This document shows positions 2,641-16,833 of a DNA stretch of 16,833 bases, one piece after another. This DNA is from Promethearchaeota archaeon (GTDB lineage: Archaea > Asgardarchaeota > Lokiarchaeia > Sigyniarchaeales > SOKP01): the NCBI GenBank assembly GCA_013375475.1, contig JABXKD010000043.1:14729-31561 (forward strand). Direction: 5' to 3'. The notes under the pieces were generated by a model. The model made no database searches, had not been told where the DNA came from, and was given only the letters and a program-made list of their open reading frames with translations. The translations under genes were made by a program, and so were the position numbers. The first letter of the stretch is position 1. Each line of letters opens with the position of its first letter.

Positions 2641-3168
2641 CTACTGACTCCTTGATTCTACTATTCTACGAGTGAGTTCAGTAAAGGCATCATCTACATT
2701 GATCCCTGTTTTAGCTGAAGTTTCTATGTAAATACTACCTTCATTTTCAGCAAATGCTCGTGCTTCTTCTCGATCAATAACTTCTCCAACATCTTCGAGT
2801 AGATCTACTTTATTTCCAATTAATACAAAAGGGATGTTCTCGTTGCTGAATTGACGAATTTCTGTAAGCCACTTCCTAGTCTCAATGTAAGTTTGCTCTC
2901 TTGTTAAGTCAAAAACTAATAAAGCACCAGCAGCTCCCTTGTAAAAGGTCGATCGGATGAATTCGAAGCGTTGCTGACCACCTATATCCCATATAGAGAG
3001 GGTAGCTACTTCTCCGGGTTTAAATTCCACATCTTTAGTTAATATGTCAACTCCAACTGTTAACTTATAGTTCGCTGCAAACCGGTTTTTGATAAACCTT
3101 TGAACAAGGCTCGTTTTTCCAACAGCGGCAGCTCCCGTAAGTAAAACTTTTAACTTAAAACTCGACAT
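2641..3168 (-). CDS. Rab-like small GTPase (Ras superfamily, Asgard type)
   Basis: G1 GAAAVGKTS, G2/RabF1-like TVGVD, G3 WDIGGQ, RabF-like RFEFIRSTFYKGAAGALLVFD, G4 NKVD and G5 ETSAK. It has no hypervariable tail and no C-terminal Cys. Confidence 0.95.
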   Translation of the reverse strand: MSSFKLKVLLTGAAAVGKTSLVQRFIKNRFAANYKLTVGVDILTKDVEFKPGEVATLSIWDIGGQQRFEFIRSTFYKGAAGALLVFDLTREQTYIETRKWLTEIRQFSNENIPFVLIGNKVDLLEDVGEVIDREEARAFAENEGSIYIETSAKTGINVDDAFTELTRRIVESRSQ

Positions 3169-5654: not shown

Positions 5655-8600
5655 ATGGAGGGAAAAGAAGAGTTAGCTCAAGAAGCTTTAAGATATCTAT
5701 CTATAGCTCAGAATTTTGAAGAGGGAAAGGATTTTGAAAAAGCTATAGAAAACTATCACATAGCTGCCGATTATCTTAAAAGTAGTGGATATTTGATAAA
5801 TAAAATTGGCGATATTTATTCTAGAATTGAAGATTTAAAAGAATTTGCTAAACAAGAGAAGATCTACAATCAAGCTAGTGTAAAAAGCCAAATTGAACAA
5901 ATGCAAGATGAAGCGTTTTCCTTATTAGATGGAGCTCAAAAATTAGAATCAGATGGATTTTTAGAGGATGCTATTGATCAGTATATGTCCGCTATTAAAT
6001 TATTGGTTCAAGCAGGGTGGTCAGAAACCCAATTAGGAGATTTAAAAACTAAATTAAGTCAAATTGCTGGAAAAATAGAGCAGGGGAATTTAGTTAAAAA
6101 ACAAAGAAGTAGTGAAACTCAACAACCTATGACTGCTTCTAGAGAAGTTAAACCTCAGGTTTTGAGCGCGTTTGGAGAAAAAAACAGTGCGGCTAAGGAA
6201 GAAGAATTAAAAAAGTATAAAGAAATGAAAGAGCAGGAAGAGCGAATTCAAAACGAGGCTTTTACTTTCATAGATAATGCTAAATTCTTTGAAAACGATA
6301 GGAAGTTTGATAAAGCAATAGAAAATTACCAAAATGCGGTAAATCTATTAGAATCAATAGGATGGCAAGATCAAACTCAGAACATTATCCTCATAATTAA
6401 CAAATTGAAAAAAGAAAAATCTGAGTATGAAAAATTCAAAGCGCAAAAATTAGCAAAACCTACAATTATAGAAGAAAGAAGTAAAGAAGAAGTTATTGAT
6501 ATAGAAGAAATAAGAAGAGATGAAGAAAATAAGCAGTTTGCAGCTTTTAACTTGGTTGATATCGGAAAGAAGTTGGAACGAGAAAAAAAATACGATCAAG
6601 CTATAACCAATTTTGAAAAAGCGATAAAATTATTTAAATCCATAGAATGGGATTCATACATTCAGCCAGTTAAAGGTTTTATCAAAAACGTAAAAGAAAA
6701 GCAAGAAAATGAAGAGAAAACTGAAGAATTAACAGTGAAAAGAGAATCTGAACTTAAAAATCTTCAAGACACAATTTATTTAAAAGAGAGAGAAGAAATT
6801 ATACAAACTGCGAGGGAACTAGATCAGAAAAGATTAGAACACGAACAGAAACGGAGAGAAGAAGCAAGAAGAGAAGAACAATTTTTTACAGTTTTAGATG
6901 AAGCTGATAAGTTATTAAAAGAAAATCGCGCCTTCTCTGAAGCCACTAAGAAATATACAGAAGCTTTGGACCTACTCACAAAATTAGGAGCTGGCTGGGA
7001 ATCTCATGCTACTACGATTAAAAATACAATTTCAAGCATAAAAAAAATACAAGAAACTCAAATCGAAAAAGAATTGGAGGAGCAAAAGAAATTAGAACAG
7101 CGAAAAAAGTTAGATTTAGATTTTCAACAACAAACCTCTATCCAACTAGCTAAAGAAAGAGAAAAAATAAAACAAAGAGAAAGTGCTTTACAAGTAAGAA
7201 GAGATGAGATTGAATATAGAGAAAAGCAAAAAGAAGCAGCCTTTAAAGCCTTAGATGCAGCAGAAGATTATATTAAGCAATCTGAGTTAGATAAAGCGAT
7301 AACAGCGTATCAAACGGCGGGTAATATTTTTGCTAGTATCCAATGGAATGAAGAATTACATTTAATTGAAAATTCTATAAGAGACCTTGAAATTAGAAAA
7401 AGAGACCAAGCAATAGCAGAGCAAAAAGAAATGCAGAAATCCATAGAGAAATATAAAACAGATCAACAGTTTCAGGAACACATGTCTAAGCAACTTCAAC
7501 AAGAACGGGAGAGATTGAGAAAGAAGGAAATAAGGTTAAGAGATCAAAAAGCAGAACTAGAATACCGAGAGAAAAGAAAAGAATATGCTTTTAGGATATT
7601 AGACGAGGCACAACCGTTCCTAGAAAAGGGAGATTATGAAAAAACCATAGAAATCTATCAAGAAGTAACTAATATTTTCGCAGGCATTCAGTGGTATGAT
7701 GAAATGGAAAGAATTGGTAACGCTATCATCGAAATTGAAAATAAGAAGCGCAATGCTGAAATTAAAAAACAGAGGGAAATAGAAAAGCAAATCAATAGAG
7801 AAAGGGAAGATAGAGAGTTTCAAGAGAAAGTTATCAGCGAAATGAAAATTAAGAGAGATCAACTAAAACAGAGAGAAGCAGTCAAGAAGAAACGTGAAGA
7901 TGAGATATCGTTTAGGGAAACTCAAAAACAAGAGGCTTTTAGAACATTAGATGAAGCTCAAAACTATCTATCGTTAGGAAAATTCGATCTCGCTATTGAT
8001 AAATATCGAGAGGTTAACGGTATTTTCGCCCAAATTCAATGGTTGGAAGAAATACCTTTAATTAATCAAACCATTAATCAAATTGAAAATAAAAGAAAAG
8101 AGGAAGAGTTTAGAAAGCAGAGGGAATTTGAACAGATAATTAAAGAAGAAGCAGAGAATCAAAAATTTCTAGATAACATTAAAATTCAACGAAAGAGAGA
8201 ACAACTAAAAATCCTGAAGATAAGAGAATCAGAAGAACAAAAGAGGGAATTTAGTGCACAACATCTTACACTTCAGAATAATGCGTTTAAGATGATTGAA
8301 GATGCAGATGAATATCTGAAACGAGAGAATTTTGAGGAAGCCTTAGGAGCATATCAGAACGCTCTTAATGTTCTAGAAAATATTGGATGGACGGGTAATT
8401 ACATTACTTTATTAAAAGATTCGATACAGAGTGTCCAATTCAAAAAGAGGGAGAAAGAGCAAAGTGTTCTTCTGGAAAAGGAAAAATTAAGAAGACAATG
8501 GGAGGAAGAAAGAGAATTCGAACAGGAAGTAGCCCATAACCTCCAAAAAGAAAAAGAAAGGATGATAGCGAAGAAAATTGAGCTTCTTAAGAAAGAAGAA

Positions 8601-10586
8601 GTTCTACAAATGACAGAAAATCAAAAAGAAGAAGCTTTCAGAATAATGGAAAACGCAGAAGAGTTATTAAAGCAGGGGAATTATGAACAAGCAATTGATA
8701 ACTATTATCAAGCAGAGCTAATTTTAATTCAAATCAACTTTCCAACAGATCTTGTTAAGGATGCGATAAGTAAAATACAAGAAGAGAAGAGAAAAGCAGA
8801 TTTAGCAAAACAACAAGAGTTAGAAGCTAAACTTAGAAAAGAAGAAGACGAAAGACAATTCCTACAAGCAATTACAAATAAAATGAAGTTTGAGGACGAC
8901 CAAATGAGAGCTAAGCAAGTCAAAATTAAAAAGCAAGAGGAATTAAAAGCTTACCTAGAAAAACGTAAAGAAGTTGCTTTTGAATTAATAGATGAAGCAG
9001 ATAATTTAGTAAAACGAGGAAATTACGATAAGGCACTTGAATACTATAGAAGCGTCGAATTAGTACTAAGCGAAATAAACTATCCAACCAATTCAATTAA
9101 AGAGCAAATTGTTAAAGTTAAGGAAAGAAAAAGAAGCGAGGAATTACAAAAACAGAAAGAACTCGAAACTAAGCTACAAAAAGATAGAGAAGAGTTCGGA
9201 TTTCAGAGGAAAATTGCTGGAGATTTAATTAAAGAAAAGAAGCGTTTAAAATTGAAGCAAATAGCTATAGAAAAGCGCACATTAACTCTCGAAAATATTA
9301 ATAGGAAAAAAGATGATGCGTTTAGAATCTTAGACGATGCAGAGCGCCATATTAAAAATTCGGAATTTGAACTTGCATTATTGAGTTATCGAAAAGCAAT
9401 GCTAATTTTAAATGAAATCCAATTCCCAACAGACTCAATTAACGAAATGATAACAAAGGTAAGCAATCTTAAGTCAAAAAAAGGCCAAGAAGCCCAACAC
9501 GTATTAAAAAGAGAGCTAGTAAGACTAAAAGAAGAGAAATCCCTAGAAACAATAATCGAAGAAAGACGAAAGCAAGAAAGAGAGAAAAAGATCGCTCAAC
9601 AGATCGCATTACAGCAAAGAGAAAAAACCGTGCAAGATCAACTTACTTACAGAGAAGCCGCTTATTCTTTTCTTGAAGACGGAGGAAAATTCCTTAAAGG
9701 AAGGTCGCCTGATTACGATAAAGCAATATCTTTATATATACAGGCTAGAAATTTGCTCGCTGAAAAAATTGGATGGGAGCCCGAAATCAATAACTTGAAT
9801 ATACTAATTAATGATTTAGTTCGTGAGAAAGATAAATATAGAGAGAAGAAAAAGTTAGAAGCAGAAACCAGAATTAAAAGGCAACAAGAATATGAACTGT
9901 TTCGACAGCAAATTCAAAAGCAACAATTGGAAAACGAACTCAACAAGCGAGAACAACAAAAAAAGTTAAGGAAATTATACGAAGATCAAAAATATGCAGC
10001 AATAACTAAGGAGGAGGGCTTAAGTTTAATAGATGAGGGAAAGGAGCTAGCGATGAAATATAATTTCGATGATGCTTATAAAAAGTTTAATCGCGCGATT
10101 CAAAAATTCAACGAGATTGGTTGGAGTGAACAAACGAAGTATATTGAGAAAGAGATTGAAAATACAAAGATTTTCGAACAACAGGTAAGAGAAAATGATA
10201 TCAAAATCCAAAAAATACATAAAGAATTAGAGATTAAAAAAAGAGATGAAGAACGCCTAAGTAAAATAGCTGAGAGTAAATTAAAAGTAACTATTAAAGA
10301 AGTAGGTGATTTAGCTGGTGAAGTCTCGCAACTTATCAAAACTAAAAAAGAACGAGATGAAATTAAAAAAAAACAGAAAAAAGAAAAACTAATATCAGAA
10401 TCTAAACAATTTAAACGAGATATGAAAGATTTAATTAATTTGAAAGAAGAGCTTAAGAGAGAACTGTCAGAGGCAAAGAAAGATGAGGAAAAACGGAAAA
10501 AGGAGCTAGAAATAGCTAAAGATAAAGAAAAGGCGGATGAGATTAAGAAAATGCTTAAGGATATATCAAAAAAAAAATCGACCTAA
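5655..10586 (+). CDS. 1643-aa protein with about 14 MIT/TPR-like helical modules separated by long E/K/R/Q-rich coiled-coil linkers
   Basis: The motif AFxxLDxAxxxxxxxx(Y/F)(D/E)xAIxxYxxAxxx(F/L)xxIx(W/F) was counted 14 times by eye, roughly every 100-125 aa. Linkers are highly charged and helical. No signal peptide or transmembrane segment is apparent. Confidence 0.85.
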   Translation: MEGKEELAQEALRYLSIAQNFEEGKDFEKAIENYHIAADYLKSSGYLINKIGDIYSRIEDLKEFAKQEKIYNQASVKSQIEQMQDEAFSLLDGAQKLESDGFLEDAIDQYMSAIKLLVQAGWSETQLGDLKTKLSQIAGKIEQGNLVKKQRSSETQQPMTASREVKPQVLSAFGEKNSAAKEEELKKYKEMKEQEERIQNEAFTFIDNAKFFENDRKFDKAIENYQNAVNLLESIGWQDQTQNIILIINKLKKEKSEYEKFKAQKLAKPTIIEERSKEEVIDIEEIRRDEENKQFAAFNLVDIGKKLEREKKYDQAITNFEKAIKLFKSIEWDSYIQPVKGFIKNVKEKQENEEKTEELTVKRESELKNLQDTIYLKEREEIIQTARELDQKRLEHEQKRREEARREEQFFTVLDEADKLLKENRAFSEATKKYTEALDLLTKLGAGWESHATTIKNTISSIKKIQETQIEKELEEQKKLEQRKKLDLDFQQQTSIQLAKEREKIKQRESALQVRRDEIEYREKQKEAAFKALDAAEDYIKQSELDKAITAYQTAGNIFASIQWNEELHLIENSIRDLEIRKRDQAIAEQKEMQKSIEKYKTDQQFQEHMSKQLQQERERLRKKEIRLRDQKAELEYREKRKEYAFRILDEAQPFLEKGDYEKTIEIYQEVTNIFAGIQWYDEMERIGNAIIEIENKKRNAEIKKQREIEKQINREREDREFQEKVISEMKIKRDQLKQREAVKKKREDEISFRETQKQEAFRTLDEAQNYLSLGKFDLAIDKYREVNGIFAQIQWLEEIPLINQTINQIENKRKEEEFRKQREFEQIIKEEAENQKFLDNIKIQRKREQLKILKIRESEEQKREFSAQHLTLQNNAFKMIEDADEYLKRENFEEALGAYQNALNVLENIGWTGNYITLLKDSIQSVQFKKREKEQSVLLEKEKLRRQWEEEREFEQEVAHNLQKEKERMIAKKIELLKKEEVLQMTENQKEEAFRIMENAEELLKQGNYEQAIDNYYQAELILIQINFPTDLVKDAISKIQEEKRKADLAKQQELEAKLRKEEDERQFLQAITNKMKFEDDQMRAKQVKIKKQEELKAYLEKRKEVAFELIDEADNLVKRGNYDKALEYYRSVELVLSEINYPTNSIKEQIVKVKERKRSEELQKQKELETKLQKDREEFGFQRKIAGDLIKEKKRLKLKQIAIEKRTLTLENINRKKDDAFRILDDAERHIKNSEFELALLSYRKAMLILNEIQFPTDSINEMITKVSNLKSKKGQEAQHVLKRELVRLKEEKSLETIIEERRKQEREKKIAQQIALQQREKTVQDQLTYREAAYSFLEDGGKFLKGRSPDYDKAISLYIQARNLLAEKIGWEPEINNLNILINDLVREKDKYREKKKLEAETRIKRQQEYELFRQQIQKQQLENELNKREQQKKLRKLYEDQKYAAITKEEGLSLIDEGKELAMKYNFDDAYKKFNRAIQKFNEIGWSEQTKYIEKEIENTKIFEQQVRENDIKIQKIHKELEIKKRDEERLSKIAESKLKVTIKEVGDLAGEVSQLIKTKKERDEIKKKQKKEKLISESKQFKRDMKDLINLKEELKRELSEAKKDEEKRKKELEIAKDKEKADEIKKMLKDISKKKST

Positions 10587-12191: not shown

Positions 12192-13769
12192 ATGACAGTA
12201 GACAAGGAAGATATCAAAAAATCACGGATGTACGCCCGTCAACAGTTAATAGACGGGTGGGATCAAGAAATTGTTAGTGAAGGATGCGTAATGATCGTAG
12301 GTGTTGGAGCTTTAGGTTGCGAGATAGCTAAAGATTTCGCCTTAATGGGAATAGGAAAAGTAGTTTTAGTGGATTTAGACACCATTGAAACCTCTAACCT
12401 TTCACGTCAAATGCTATTCAAACCTGGTGACGAGGGTCGTCCTAAAGCAGAAGTCGCCGCAGAAAGGTTAAGAGATATGAATCCCTTTTTAAAAGTCGAC
12501 TTTTATTTTGAAAAGCTTCAAAAATTACCGATGTCAGTGTACGAAGAATGTGACATTGTTATTGCTGCATTAGATAACTTTAACGCAAGGCTAGATTTAA
12601 ATAAAATATGTTTAAGACTAAAAAAGCCAATGGTTGAAGGTGGAACAGTAGGATTTGAAGGGCACGTTCAAGTAGTTATTCCAGAAGGATCTAAACTCGA
12701 GTATAAAAATCGAGAAAATGAAATCGAAAAAATTGTAGAAACTAAAATGTGGGAATACGACAATCCAGAGTATTTAGATGCACAGAAAGAAATAGAGCAG
12801 TTAGAATACCTTATTGAAAGGTTGAGGATTGAAAAATTAGAGCCTTTTAAAAAACTTGTTAGAAAACAAGTCGAAGAAGATTTTGATAAAAAATACGCAA
12901 AGGATTTATTGGACATTACTCCTTGTTATCGTTGTTTGGTTCCCATCCCCCCTGCTGACGATAAGTTGGTAGCCGCGTGCACTTTAAAGGGACTTCCGAG
13001 AAATAGAAACCATTGTGTTATAAAAGCAGAAGTAACCTTCGAGAAAGAACACGGTTTTAAACCTGATATGAATGTAGACGACGATGTGGTAAAATTGATG
13101 GCATTATCACAAAAGGAGTTAGAAGAATTACGAACAAGAGTCTTTAATGAGAATGTTTCACCGGAAAAATTAGAAACTCTCAGTGATGAAGAAATTCAAG
13201 AATGGAAAGATAACATTAAAGAAACATTTGGTGCTAATTACAAGTTCGAAGAAATGGAGAATATTTTAGGAAATAAAATTGCAGCGATTCAATCGGTCAG
13301 CTCTGTTATTTCGAGCATACAATCCCAAGAAGCCTTAAAATTATTGTTTCGATTACACGGTAGAAATATTGGCCCTCCAATGGATCCTCCTTATGTTAAT
13401 TATAATGGTGTATATGGTCAATTTGATCATTTAGATATTACTAAAAGAGACGATTGCCTTGCATGTGGGAAGATTGAAGGTGAGGAGAATGTGCAAATTG
13501 TTGTTCCATTTGACGCTGACGTAGGATATATATTCAAAGCTATGAGAATAACAGGCTATGAATTGGAACCTATTTTATGGATGATTACTAATCCAGTTAA
13601 TAAAGAGATGTTTTGGAATCCCTATATGAGTGGAGAGTTTAAAGATCCGAGCATAAAATTAACAGCCCTTAAAATTAAAAGCAATGATATAATCACCCTT
13701 ACACCTTTAGGCAAAGCGAAGGTAGAATCAGAGATCAAAAAGTATAATGTAATAATAACCTACATGTAA
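12192..13769 (+). CDS. Ubiquitin/UBL-activating enzyme E1 (ThiF/MoeB fold with a eukaryote-like catalytic-Cys domain and a C-terminal extension)
   Basis: Adenylation motifs YARQ, VGVGALGCE, DLDTIETSNLSRQMLF, KAEVAA and ALDNFNAR. Zn ligands PCYRC and DCLAC. Catalytic-Cys motif CTLKGLPRNRNHC (Cys codon 12978-12980). Confidence 0.93.
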   Translation: MTVDKEDIKKSRMYARQQLIDGWDQEIVSEGCVMIVGVGALGCEIAKDFALMGIGKVVLVDLDTIETSNLSRQMLFKPGDEGRPKAEVAAERLRDMNPFLKVDFYFEKLQKLPMSVYEECDIVIAALDNFNARLDLNKICLRLKKPMVEGGTVGFEGHVQVVIPEGSKLEYKNRENEIEKIVETKMWEYDNPEYLDAQKEIEQLEYLIERLRIEKLEPFKKLVRKQVEEDFDKKYAKDLLDITPCYRCLVPIPPADDKLVAACTLKGLPRNRNHCVIKAEVTFEKEHGFKPDMNVDDDVVKLMALSQKELEELRTRVFNENVSPEKLETLSDEEIQEWKDNIKETFGANYKFEEMENILGNKIAAIQSVSSVISSIQSQEALKLLFRLHGRNIGPPMDPPYVNYNGVYGQFDHLDITKRDDCLACGKIEGEENVQIVVPFDADVGYIFKAMRITGYELEPILWMITNPVNKEMFWNPYMSGEFKDPSIKLTALKIKSNDIITLTPLGKAKVESEIKKYNVIITYM

Positions 13770-15770: not shown

Positions 15771-16238
15771 ATGCGAGATAAGAGATTTGTAGCAGAACAT
15801 CGTGGTGGACTCCTAAAAAAGGAGCAGCACCGCCAATTAATGCAGTGGGGTTGTGATTGTGCTGAAAATGTATTATCCCTCTTCGGTAAAGAAATGGATA
15901 AACGACTAGGATATGCTATCACAGTGGCTAAAGAATGGATAAATGGAAACGCTTCGGTAGGGAATGCAAGAGATGCTTCATTAGGTGCACATTTGGTGGC
16001 AAGAGAATCCACTGATCCAACTTCGATAGCGGTTGCACGTTCTGTTGGACATGCTGTTGCAACAGCTCATATGGCTGATCATTCATTAGGAGCCGCGTTA
16101 TATGCATTAAAGGCCGTTAAAAGTGCAGGTAAGTCTATTGAGGTCGAGAGAAACTGGCAGAATGAAAAATTACCCGTTGAAATTATGGAGCTTGTAAAAA
16201 CTGCAAGAAATAAGAAAGAGAAAGCTTTGAAGATATGA
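15771..16238 (+). CDS. Imm5-like putative immunity-family helical protein
   Basis: HRQLMQWGCDCAENVL, ARDASLGAHLVARE, ARSVGHAVATAHMADHSLGAALYALKAV and ERNWQ match my recollection of the Imm5-like family pattern. Not verified by a search. Confidence 0.7.
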   Translation: MRDKRFVAEHRGGLLKKEQHRQLMQWGCDCAENVLSLFGKEMDKRLGYAITVAKEWINGNASVGNARDASLGAHLVARESTDPTSIAVARSVGHAVATAHMADHSLGAALYALKAVKSAGKSIEVERNWQNEKLPVEIMELVKTARNKKEKALKI

Positions 16239-16341: not shown

Positions 16342-16833
16342 CTAATCCATGGCGTATTTAGCAGTCCATGACTTAGCTTTTGCTTCGAACTTCTTTTGAG
16401 CTCTAAAATATTGCTCACCCGCCTCGTGGTTAAGAGGGTCTCCTGGGTTAAAGAAGGGAGGCTCAACATGCATCATACCTTTTAAGGCTTCTATGATGTT
16501 CGTCAAGGTTTTTGAAGGGGTCCAACCGGAAGCCCCTGTCGAAGCGTCAACTTTACCAACTAGGTCGGGATTAATCAAATCTAAACATATATTAAGTTTT
16601 CCGGGAGGAATGCTGCTATCTATATTAGGGTGCCACATTAAGGTAACGGCATATGCATTTCTCCAAGATAGACGAGATGTCTCACATTATGGAGGGGCGA
16701 AAGGATAATTTTTTTCCCTCTAAACCGAGATGGTTTAAAAATTATAAAGATCTGGGAATTTAATTTCGAAAATGAATTTTCCTTTCGCATATGGCGTTCC
16801 TTCTTTTCCGATGATGGTCAGTCGGAGGTGGTC
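16342..16833 (-). CDS. Ubiquitin-conjugating enzyme E2 (UBC), 5'-truncated by the window; split gene, complement(join(16342..16658,16689..16712,16752..>16833))
   Basis: The joined product reads DHLRLTIIGKEGTPYAKGKFIFEIKFPENYPFAPPYAYAVTLMWHPNIDSSIPPGKLNICLDL...GWTPSKTLTNIIEAL...PLNHEAG...AKSWTAKYA. It contains all UBC hallmarks (GTPY.gG.F, FP.nYPF.PP, HPNI, catalytic Cys at 16585-16587, W.P, PLN.EA). The ORF track captures only the last 98 aa because of in-frame stops in the two insertions. Confidence 0.92.
16659..16688 (-). other. Putative 30-nt BHB-type intron 2 of the E2 gene
   Basis: Sense sequence AATGTGAGACATCTCGTCTATCTTGGAGAA, which creates an in-frame TAA at its 5' junction. Central helix CUCC/GGAG, bulges AU^A and AA^A. 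Joining gives CCA T|AT GCA (P-Y-A). Confidence 0.78.
16713..16751 (-). other. Putative 39-nt BHB-type intron 1 of the E2 gene
   Basis: Sense sequence ATCTTTATAATTTTTAAACCATCTCGGTTTAGAGGGAAA, with in-frame TAA and TAG. Central helix UCCC/GGGA, bulges AG^A and AA^A, inner helix UCU/AGA. Joining gives CCA G|AA AAT TAT (P-E-N-Y). Confidence 0.8.

Follow-up and report, generated by a model that had tools for sequence, protein, structure and literature searches.

The E2 ubiquitin-conjugating (UBC) gene described here is interrupted by two short, stop-bearing insertions, which are most likely introns that the splicing endonuclease EndA and the ligase RtcB would remove from the E2 pre-mRNA. Their predicted structure places them with the bulge-helix-bulge (BHB) introns, in a relaxed, HBh'-like form, as an earlier note on this DNA had proposed from the letters alone. 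The gene lies at the end of the window, by which we mean the whole stretch of 16,833 nucleotides that was analysed (G000:C226:14729-31561); the contig ends where the window ends. The genome has a G+C content of 32.5%, and the window encodes a Ras-family GTPase, a giant MIT/TPR protein, a ThiF (E1-like) protein and RACo, among others. The guess that the host is Asgard-like was right, the orthologues in public records being those of Promethearchaeota.

On the minus strand, the reading frame that starts at 16833 gives DHLRLTIIGKEGTPYAKGKFIFEIKFP and then meets in-frame TAA, TAG and TAA codons. With X put in for each stop, the translation matches the Pfam family UQ_con (PF00179) at 3.2e-19, with 69.4 bits against a cut-off of 27. 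Together with this profile score, the HPNI and NICLD of the 3' exon, both contained in the 3' ORF at 16342-16638, assign the gene to the UBC/E2 family; we take the HPN motif to play its usual UBC role and the cysteine of NICLD to be the catalytic one. DNA alignment with intron-less orthologues, together with pairwise re-alignment, places insertions of 39 nt and 30 nt at 16713-16751 and 16659-16688, exactly where the earlier note had seen them. Both can slide by +1 with the product unchanged. What remains after their removal is 423 nt, or 140 codons with a single terminal stop, in which the canonical spacing FPENYPFAPPYAYAVTLMWHPNI is restored. The 5' end of the gene is cut by the contig end, and about 28 N-terminal residues are missing. 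The parts of the gene, preceded by the ThiF-family gene for context only, are as follows.

12192 to 13769, plus strand: ThiF-family (E1-like) gene (PF00899, 4.2e-58), about 2.6 kb from the E2 gene, context only
16752 to 16833, minus strand: 5' part of the E2 coding sequence, ending in ...AAATTCCCAG, cut by the contig and window end
16752 to 16757, minus strand: last six nucleotides of this exon, TCCC (16754-16757) as predicted central-helix strand and AG (16752-16753) as predicted bulge nucleotides
16713 to 16751, minus strand: putative intron 1, 39 nt, phase 1 (FP|E), with in-frame TAA (16735-16737) and TAG
16713 to 16718, minus strand: 3' end of putative intron 1, GGGA (16715-16718) followed by AA
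16689 to 16712, minus strand: middle exon, 24 nt, AAAATTATCCTTTCGCCCCTCCAT, encoding (E)NYPFAPP(Y)
16689 to 16694, minus strand: end of the middle exon, CTCC (16691-16694) as predicted central-helix strand, followed by AT
16659 to 16688, minus strand: putative intron 2, 30 nt, phase 1 (PP|Y), with in-frame TAA
16659 to 16664, minus strand: 3' end of putative intron 2, GGAG (16661-16664) followed by AA
16342 to 16658, minus strand: 3' exon with the HPN motif and the NICLD cysteine, stop codon TAG at 16342-16344

The insertions belong to the genome and not to its assembly. An artefact of assembly or binning might be suspected where a contig ends inside the gene and the metagenome-assembled genome (MAG) is a mix of strains, with 6.41% contamination, a second E2 allele on contig C9 and a second EF-2 fragment on C109. 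Yet a DNA contig of another, independent study (X4, 224 nt), which spans 16568-16791, holds both insertions with two mismatches and no gap, as was to be expected if they are genomic. Homologous insertions also occupy the same site in G005, G051 and other MAGs, and an artefact is barely conceivable. The introns do not represent a repeated element, since a search for further copies in the same genome (blastn-short) returned chance-level matches only; a search of the window against Rfam gave no family at the gathering score.

Uninterrupted E2 orthologues had been expected in related genomes. Among 42 genomes of the genus, the present one included, 30 carry an orthologue with neither stop nor insertion, 83-100% identical to the query in amino acids. 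Insertions occur in five (G000, G005 with two alleles, G023, G050 and G051), and the remaining genomes have a fragment at a contig end (G052), only a paralogue of 40-45% identity (five genomes) or nothing (one genome). The five genomes hold six insertion-bearing alleles with 11 insertions, up to three per gene, at six sites.

FP|E: G000
PP|Y: G000, G005:C91 and G051, mutually homologous; G023, with a different sequence
WH|PN: G023
KGM|M: G005:C91
E|PP: G005:C185, G050 and G023
AG|EQ: G005:C91

Two further public MAG loci, L188 and L195, have insertions at E|PP, and a third, L144, repeats the G051 sequence. Seven of the 11 insertions, as well as those of L188 and L195, are 30 nt long; two are of 29 nt, one is of 31 nt and one of 39 nt. 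The last is intron 1 of the window, which is known only from the window allele and the one independent DNA contig. Intron 2, on the other hand, has homologues in G005:C91 and G051, likewise 30 nt long and at the same site, and the hairpin of this family shows compensatory changes, one pair being CG, UG or UA.

Judging by substitution rates, the E2 exons are evidently under strong purifying selection. Against six intron-less orthologues the exons of the window allele have a pN/pS of 0.005-0.081, at a pS of 0.43-0.84, and the other intron-bearing alleles have values of 0.04-0.10. The exons of all six insertion-bearing alleles are open and conserved, with a stop or frameshift in none. These data support a functional E2 gene and bear on the possibility of a decaying pseudogene, in which random insertions are never removed and the function is lost or supplied by a second UBC gene. 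The genome does hold such a second gene (G000:C37), the 5' end of the window allele is unassembled, the KGM|M insertion of G005:C91 has no central helix, and the RNA contigs discussed below derive from intron-less relatives. Decay is nonetheless hard to reconcile with a pN/pS this low at near-saturated synonymous divergence, with exons free of lesions, and with insertions that return at defined sites, their structure conserved and their base changes compensatory. A highly conserved EF-2-family gene of four genomes moreover has insertions of this kind. We thus consider a pseudogene very unlikely.

If the insertions are BHB introns, their boundaries should obey the register in which the endonuclease cuts. 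Both this cut rule and the cbf5 precedent, on which the earlier note had relied, are stated in PMC2738675, according to which EndA cuts between the second and third residue of the 3-nt bulges that flank a 4-bp helix. We took a junction that yields the product defined by the alignment and asked whether the exon bases at -6 to -3 pair, by Watson-Crick or G-U pairs, with the intron bases at -6 to -3 from the 3' end. The set comprised 16 insertions, 11 from E2 and five from the EF-2-family gene, the two of the window included, and falls into 10 sequence families. A perfect 4-bp helix in register is present in 13 of the 16 instances and in 7 of the 10 families. The imperfect instances are G023 PP|Y and the P-loop insertion of G015, with three of four pairs each, and G005:C91 KGM|M, with one of four. 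When exon ends were combined with introns of other families, 6 of 220 combinations (2.7%) were perfect; when the boundaries were slid by -8 to +8 so that the product changed, four pairs were found in 1 of 243 (0.4%). The binomial probability of at least seven families in 10 is about 1e-9 at p=0.027 and about 9e-6 at p=0.1. An attempt to align the 11 non-homologous introns with MAFFT misaligned them and was replaced by the register-based counting script.

The helices TCCC/GGGA and CTCC/GGAG, described for the window introns by the earlier note, are thus present where slid boundaries almost never offer one, and the cut rule gives in-frame junctions for both, AG^A/AA^A and AT^A/AA^A. Outside the note, on the other 14 insertions and on L188 and L195, the rule likewise predicts the in-frame junction in most cases. 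The latter two loci fit it at the sole slide that yields MMHVEPP and MMHIEPP, respectively, and in both of them, as in both window introns, a cut predicted after the second bulge nucleotide of the central helix gives the junction of the orthologues. The predicted junctions of the spliced window E2 are TTCCCAG|AAAATTAT and CCTCCAT|ATGCAT, and the peptide expected from the spliced product is KFPENYPFAPPYAYAVTLMWHPNIDSSIPPGK. The rule also hits eight other places in the window; these lie inside open frames, are indistinguishable from chance and were discarded.

The structure extends beyond the central helix. The intron's own hairpin adjoins it, beginning after the third bulge nucleotide and ending before the helix strand, with 8-10 of 9-10 checked positions paired in most instances. 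RNAalifold, which was not supplied with the rule, returned the helix, the 3-nt 5' bulge and the stacked hairpin for the EF-2 and PP|Y families, and for PP|Y it further predicted an outer helix of 3 bp and a 3' bulge of 3 nt, with double compensatory changes at three of the pairs. Among the homologous E|PP introns the central helix itself is compensated (ACGU/GCGU, ACAU/GUGU, AUAU/GUGU). Several central helices include G-U pairs. Read from the other strand these would be A-C mismatches, and the structure is therefore one of the sense RNA. Exon ends appear fitted to the introns even at synonymous sites. In the EF-2-family gene the exon reads TCAGAT in all four intron-bearing alleles and in none of the nine readable intron-less ones (TCTGAC in eight, TCCGAC in one), and at E2 PP|Y it reads CTCCAT in all four intron-bearing alleles versus 5 of 30 intron-less ones; since kin are not independent, these fits are supporting hints.

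The earlier note was also correct in calling the outer exon-exon helices weak and the motif relaxed. Nearly all instances have no outer helix, and that of the PP|Y family comprises at most 3 bp and is displaced by 1 nt. The intron-intron (h') helix is present and in register in most. With the outer helix mostly missing, the introns are of the relaxed HBh' type rather than strict hBHBh'. Both introns of the window count as weaker examples, and intron 1 is the least canonical. Folded as single sequences they give z scores of -1.26 and -1.02 against shuffles, 22 and 28 of 200 shuffles being as good. Intron 1 has an internal 8-bp hairpin (TTTAAACC/GGTTTAGA) that adjoins GGGA, its minimum free energy fold has a 14-nt 5' bulge, and the strict register leaves only three hairpin pairs.

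Could the ribosome deal with the insertions instead, either by hopping over them (translational bypassing) or by recoding the stops? Known bypass elements, such as those of T4 gene 60 and the byps of yeast mitochondria, have a stop closely after the upstream coding part, and they need matched take-off and landing codons at codon boundaries. The E2 insertions resemble them as short, stop-bearing insertions in a conserved gene whose protein is intact; both window insertions are multiples of three, and a stop follows soon after the upstream exon. They differ in that the E2 junctions split codons (phase 1), with no slide possible in G005 and G051, and in the RNA structure conserved in the EndA register. 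On reading the window sequence we found no matched take-off and landing codons, and neither CCA nor any other matching landing codon stands before the resumption point. Insertions of 29 and 31 nt in relatives shift the frame and hence cannot be translated through, which also speaks against recoding, as do the TAG stop of the E2 gene itself and the window ORFs, which tile normally under table 11. A ribosomal solution is highly improbable.

Splicing by EndA and RtcB would require that the host encode both, and predicted genes for both are present. Two EndA paralogues, of 200 and 202 aa, match tRNA_int_endo and TIGR00324, with Pfam scores (99.1 and 70.4 bits) over the cut-off, and a single RtcB is encoded (560.7 bits). 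The contigs that carry the EndA genes are G000:C215 and C133. One of the EndA paralogues has Tyr, His and Lys at the putative catalytic positions, which we presume to form the catalytic triad; in the other, Lys replaces the His. [quoted passage not shown] In PMC5829648, Asgard EndA is described as (alpha-beta)2 with an L1 insert, inserts of this kind are associated with broad substrate specificity, and both (alpha-beta)2 and epsilon2 enzymes are said to cut relaxed motifs. A preprint reports two EndA paralogues in most surveyed Asgard genomes, heavily interrupted tRNA genes and a median length of 22-23 nt for their intervening sequences (bioRxiv 10.64898/2026.10.13.758758). Consistently, 14 of the only 29 tRNA genes that ARAGORN found in the present genome bear introns.

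Another RNA-processing enzyme, an Ire1-like nuclease or excision at the DNA level might remove the insertions by a different route. EndA cleavage is at present a prediction, and intron 1, like several of the other insertions, departs from the canonical form and lacks an outer helix. Ire1 substrates carry two 7-nt stem-loops, whereas the splice sites here adjoin a helix. The register of a 4-bp helix, a 3-nt bulge and a cut after nucleotide 2 is that of EndA (PMC2738675), and a tRNA intron in this genome shows it too. Against excision from DNA, the G-U pairs favour a signal in sense-strand RNA. The end of contig C9, it is true, is an intron-less 5' part of the same E2 gene. Throughout the compared stretch its DNA equals that of the G014 allele, and several exon positions there are unlike C226, so that the intron-less DNA in the sample is another allele and not an excised form. 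Comparison of the MAG with itself yielded only the polymorphism of the EF-2 intron (C244 vs C109) and one intergenic indel. We regard these other routes, taken together, as unlikely.

RNA contigs from three data sets (X10, X16, X18) cover parts of the 3' exon, end their match at 16656/16658 and continue intron-less. Their exon letters differ from the window allele and match intron-less alleles, the continuation of the X10 contig being the C9/G014 allele. They therefore represent transcripts, or DNA carry-over, of intron-less relatives, and are silent on splicing of the window allele. The introns themselves are covered by none of the RNA contigs, which speaks neither for nor against splicing.

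Insertions of the same kind are not confined to E2. In an EF-2-family gene we found five, at two sites, in four genomes (G000, G023, G046, G015).

SD|EEE, 30 nt, G000:C244:55788-55817: recurs in G023, G046 and G015
AHID|HGKT, inside the P-loop, 31 nt, frame-shifting: extra insertion of G015

Rule-based removal gives EF-2 frames of 752-762 aa, compared with 694-697 aa unspliced. A paralogue of 33-35% identity exists, and it and the gene itself score just under the aEF-2 cut-off; in view of this paralogue the gene cannot be claimed as essential.

For the rest of the genome we used a census that is free of any motif, in which the ORFs of three G008 contigs were compared with G000 by tblastn at 60% identity or more, over 73,219 + 88,665 = 161,884 aligned residues. 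It returned 19 insertions of at least 5 aa in G000, of which those that bear stops inside genes are the two of E2 and one of the EF-2-family gene. With only three such insertions in protein genes per 161,884 residues, there is no genome-wide habit. The census also returned a polymorphic 30-nt tRNA intron (G000:C224:21776-21805), which has the same 30-nt architecture as the mRNA insertions. In the reverse direction (G000 ORFs against G008:C34, 72,000 residues), seven insertions of at least 5 aa were found in G008, none of them stop-bearing inside a gene. A de novo scan of the whole genome for the motif (a 4-bp helix with a hairpin in register, 16-100 nt, whose removal must merge two open frames) gave 839 candidates, compared with 820-886 in controls whose 3' boundary was moved by 1-2 nt, and a stricter scan (20-60 nt, AA end) gave 23, against 13-23 in the shifted controls; showing no excess over controls, these scans cannot count introns genome-wide. 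The known EF-2 intron fell below the hairpin threshold of the de novo scan. Pairs of ORFs split by one in-frame stop in both G000 and G008, which had looked unusual, turned out to be ordinary neighbouring genes or antisense frames.

How the introns came to be distributed among relatives was approached through a tree of the E2 exons (38 alleles, without G000:C9, which is too short). Intron-bearing alleles are scattered over this tree. The intron label needs seven changes, at least four of them forced by well-supported branches, and it is no more clustered than in shuffles, 211 of 500 being as low. Repeated loss, repeated gain and transfer cannot be told apart from the exon tree.

With these data in mind, one may outline how the E2 transcript of the window would be processed. 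The central helix would form between two stretches of four bases, one in the exon that stops 2 nt short of the junction and one in the intron that stops 2 nt short of its 3' end. The intron's own hairpin would stack on these 4 bp, so that the 5' site keeps a bulge of 3 nt (14 nt in intron 1) and the 3' site a segment AAN. A heteromeric EndA would then cut after the second nucleotide on each strand, and RtcB would ligate the exons and probably circularise the intron. The product would be an mRNA for a UBC core of more than 140 residues with FPENYPFAPPY...HPN...C intact, whereas translation of the unspliced RNA would end at the TAA of 16735-16737.

The mechanism is known in kind; what is unusual is the host gene, the lineage, the multiplicity and the turnover. 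In eukaryotes, unconventional splicing of HAC1/XBP1 by Ire1, with RtcB or a tRNA ligase, forms part of a regulated stress response. The likeness to the E2 case lies in a short mRNA intron removed independently of the spliceosome by a protein endonuclease, with RtcB-type ligation predicted to follow here as well; the difference is that Ire1 recognises twin stem-loops, while here a 4-bp helix with bulges would be recognised. The non-canonical (HBh') archaeal tRNA introns share the helix and bulge geometry of the E2 introns, but in E2 the host is an mRNA, in which no tRNA body aids recognition and the junction must keep the frame. In archaea, the pre-mRNA intron of cbf5 in Crenarchaeota (Desulfurococcales and Sulfolobales) depends on a hetero-oligomeric EndA and has been gained and lost among relatives, according to PMC2738675, which places its predicted cut between the second and third bulge residue. 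The E2 introns would share these features. The cbf5 intron occupies one site in one gene and is experimentally spliced. In contrast, the introns reported here are predicted to be spliced, occupy six E2 and two EF-2-family sites in an Asgard lineage, reach up to three per gene and have a uniform length of 29-31 nt (one of 39). The full-text literature open to search yielded tRNA and rRNA introns for Asgard archaea and no description of a BHB-type intron in one of their protein genes. That intron of cbf5 was the only archaeal pre-mRNA BHB intron that we found, in line with the novelty that the earlier note had guessed at.

In a wider view, one may speculate that the genus harbours a turning-over population of mini-introns of about 30 nt, resembling tRNA introns, that enter, persist in and leave protein genes and are spliced by EndA and RtcB, with at least six sites in E2 and two in the EF-2-family gene. 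According to this speculation, to which we give roughly equal chances of holding and of failing, mRNA splicing independent of the spliceosome, with gain and loss of introns, would operate in those prokaryotes that stand nearest to eukaryotes, and it might gate the expression of the ubiquitin-like system. On the practical side, gene callers will truncate or split such genes, and the window E2 would yield fragments of 98 aa and 32 aa. If the introns are indeed spliced, an Asgard lineage has several of them in a eukaryotic-signature ubiquitin enzyme and in a paralogue of a translation factor. Their polymorphism between close relatives would make the arrival of BHB introns in coding sequence, and their loss from it, open to test, as would be what an mRNA requires to serve as an EndA substrate without a tRNA body, and whether archaea near the eukaryotic stem already had interrupted protein genes.

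Within the source MAG (G000), the assembly breaks inside the E2 gene, and contigs C9 and C226 carry different alleles of its 5' part:

G000:C9:9182-9396, contig end, E2 5' part, intron-less allele
window 16752-16833, E2 5' part, start of the intron-bearing C226 allele

The C9 allele is identical to that of the related genome G014 over the stretch compared. The coexistence of the two alleles shows that the MAG, with a contamination of 6.41%, is a mix of at least two populations. A contig of G052 likewise breaks off within the E2 gene. The gene neighbourhood in the window is eukaryote-like:

2641-3168, minus, Ras-family small GTPase
5655-10586, plus, MIT/TPR protein, 1643 aa
12192-13769, plus, ThiF/E1-like protein, long insert within the ThiF domain

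Immediately downstream of E2 is a gene for an Imm5-like protein (15771-16238, plus).

Further candidate introns were found outside the window:

G000:C244:55788-55817 (L117:789-818), plus, EF-2-family gene, SD|EEE, 30 nt
G015:C76 (L097:2285-2315), minus, same gene, P-loop, AHID|HGKT, 31 nt, frame-shifting
G005:C91 (L024:2762-2791), minus, E2, KGM|M, 30 nt, in-frame, stop-free
G000:C224:21776-21805, minus, tRNA gene, 30 nt, not in G008

The SD|EEE insertion contains a TAA, has a perfect TCAG/CTGA helix with the hairpin also in the bulge-helix-bulge register, and is common to G023:C25, G046:C1 and G015:C76; a fragment of a second, intron-less EF-2-family allele lies on G000:C109. The P-loop insertion has three of the four helix pairs, and its outer helix is present to some extent. 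At KGM|M the hairpin is in register but the central helix is missing (1/4 pairs), and these 30 nt could be either a decayed intron or an insertion that is kept as coding sequence.

The tRNA intervening sequence, with a CGGT/GCTG helix and a 6-bp hairpin in register, has the same layout as the mRNA insertions. Across the whole MAG, ARAGORN calls just 29 tRNA genes, of which 14 contain introns, so it probably misses many others whose sequence is too interrupted.
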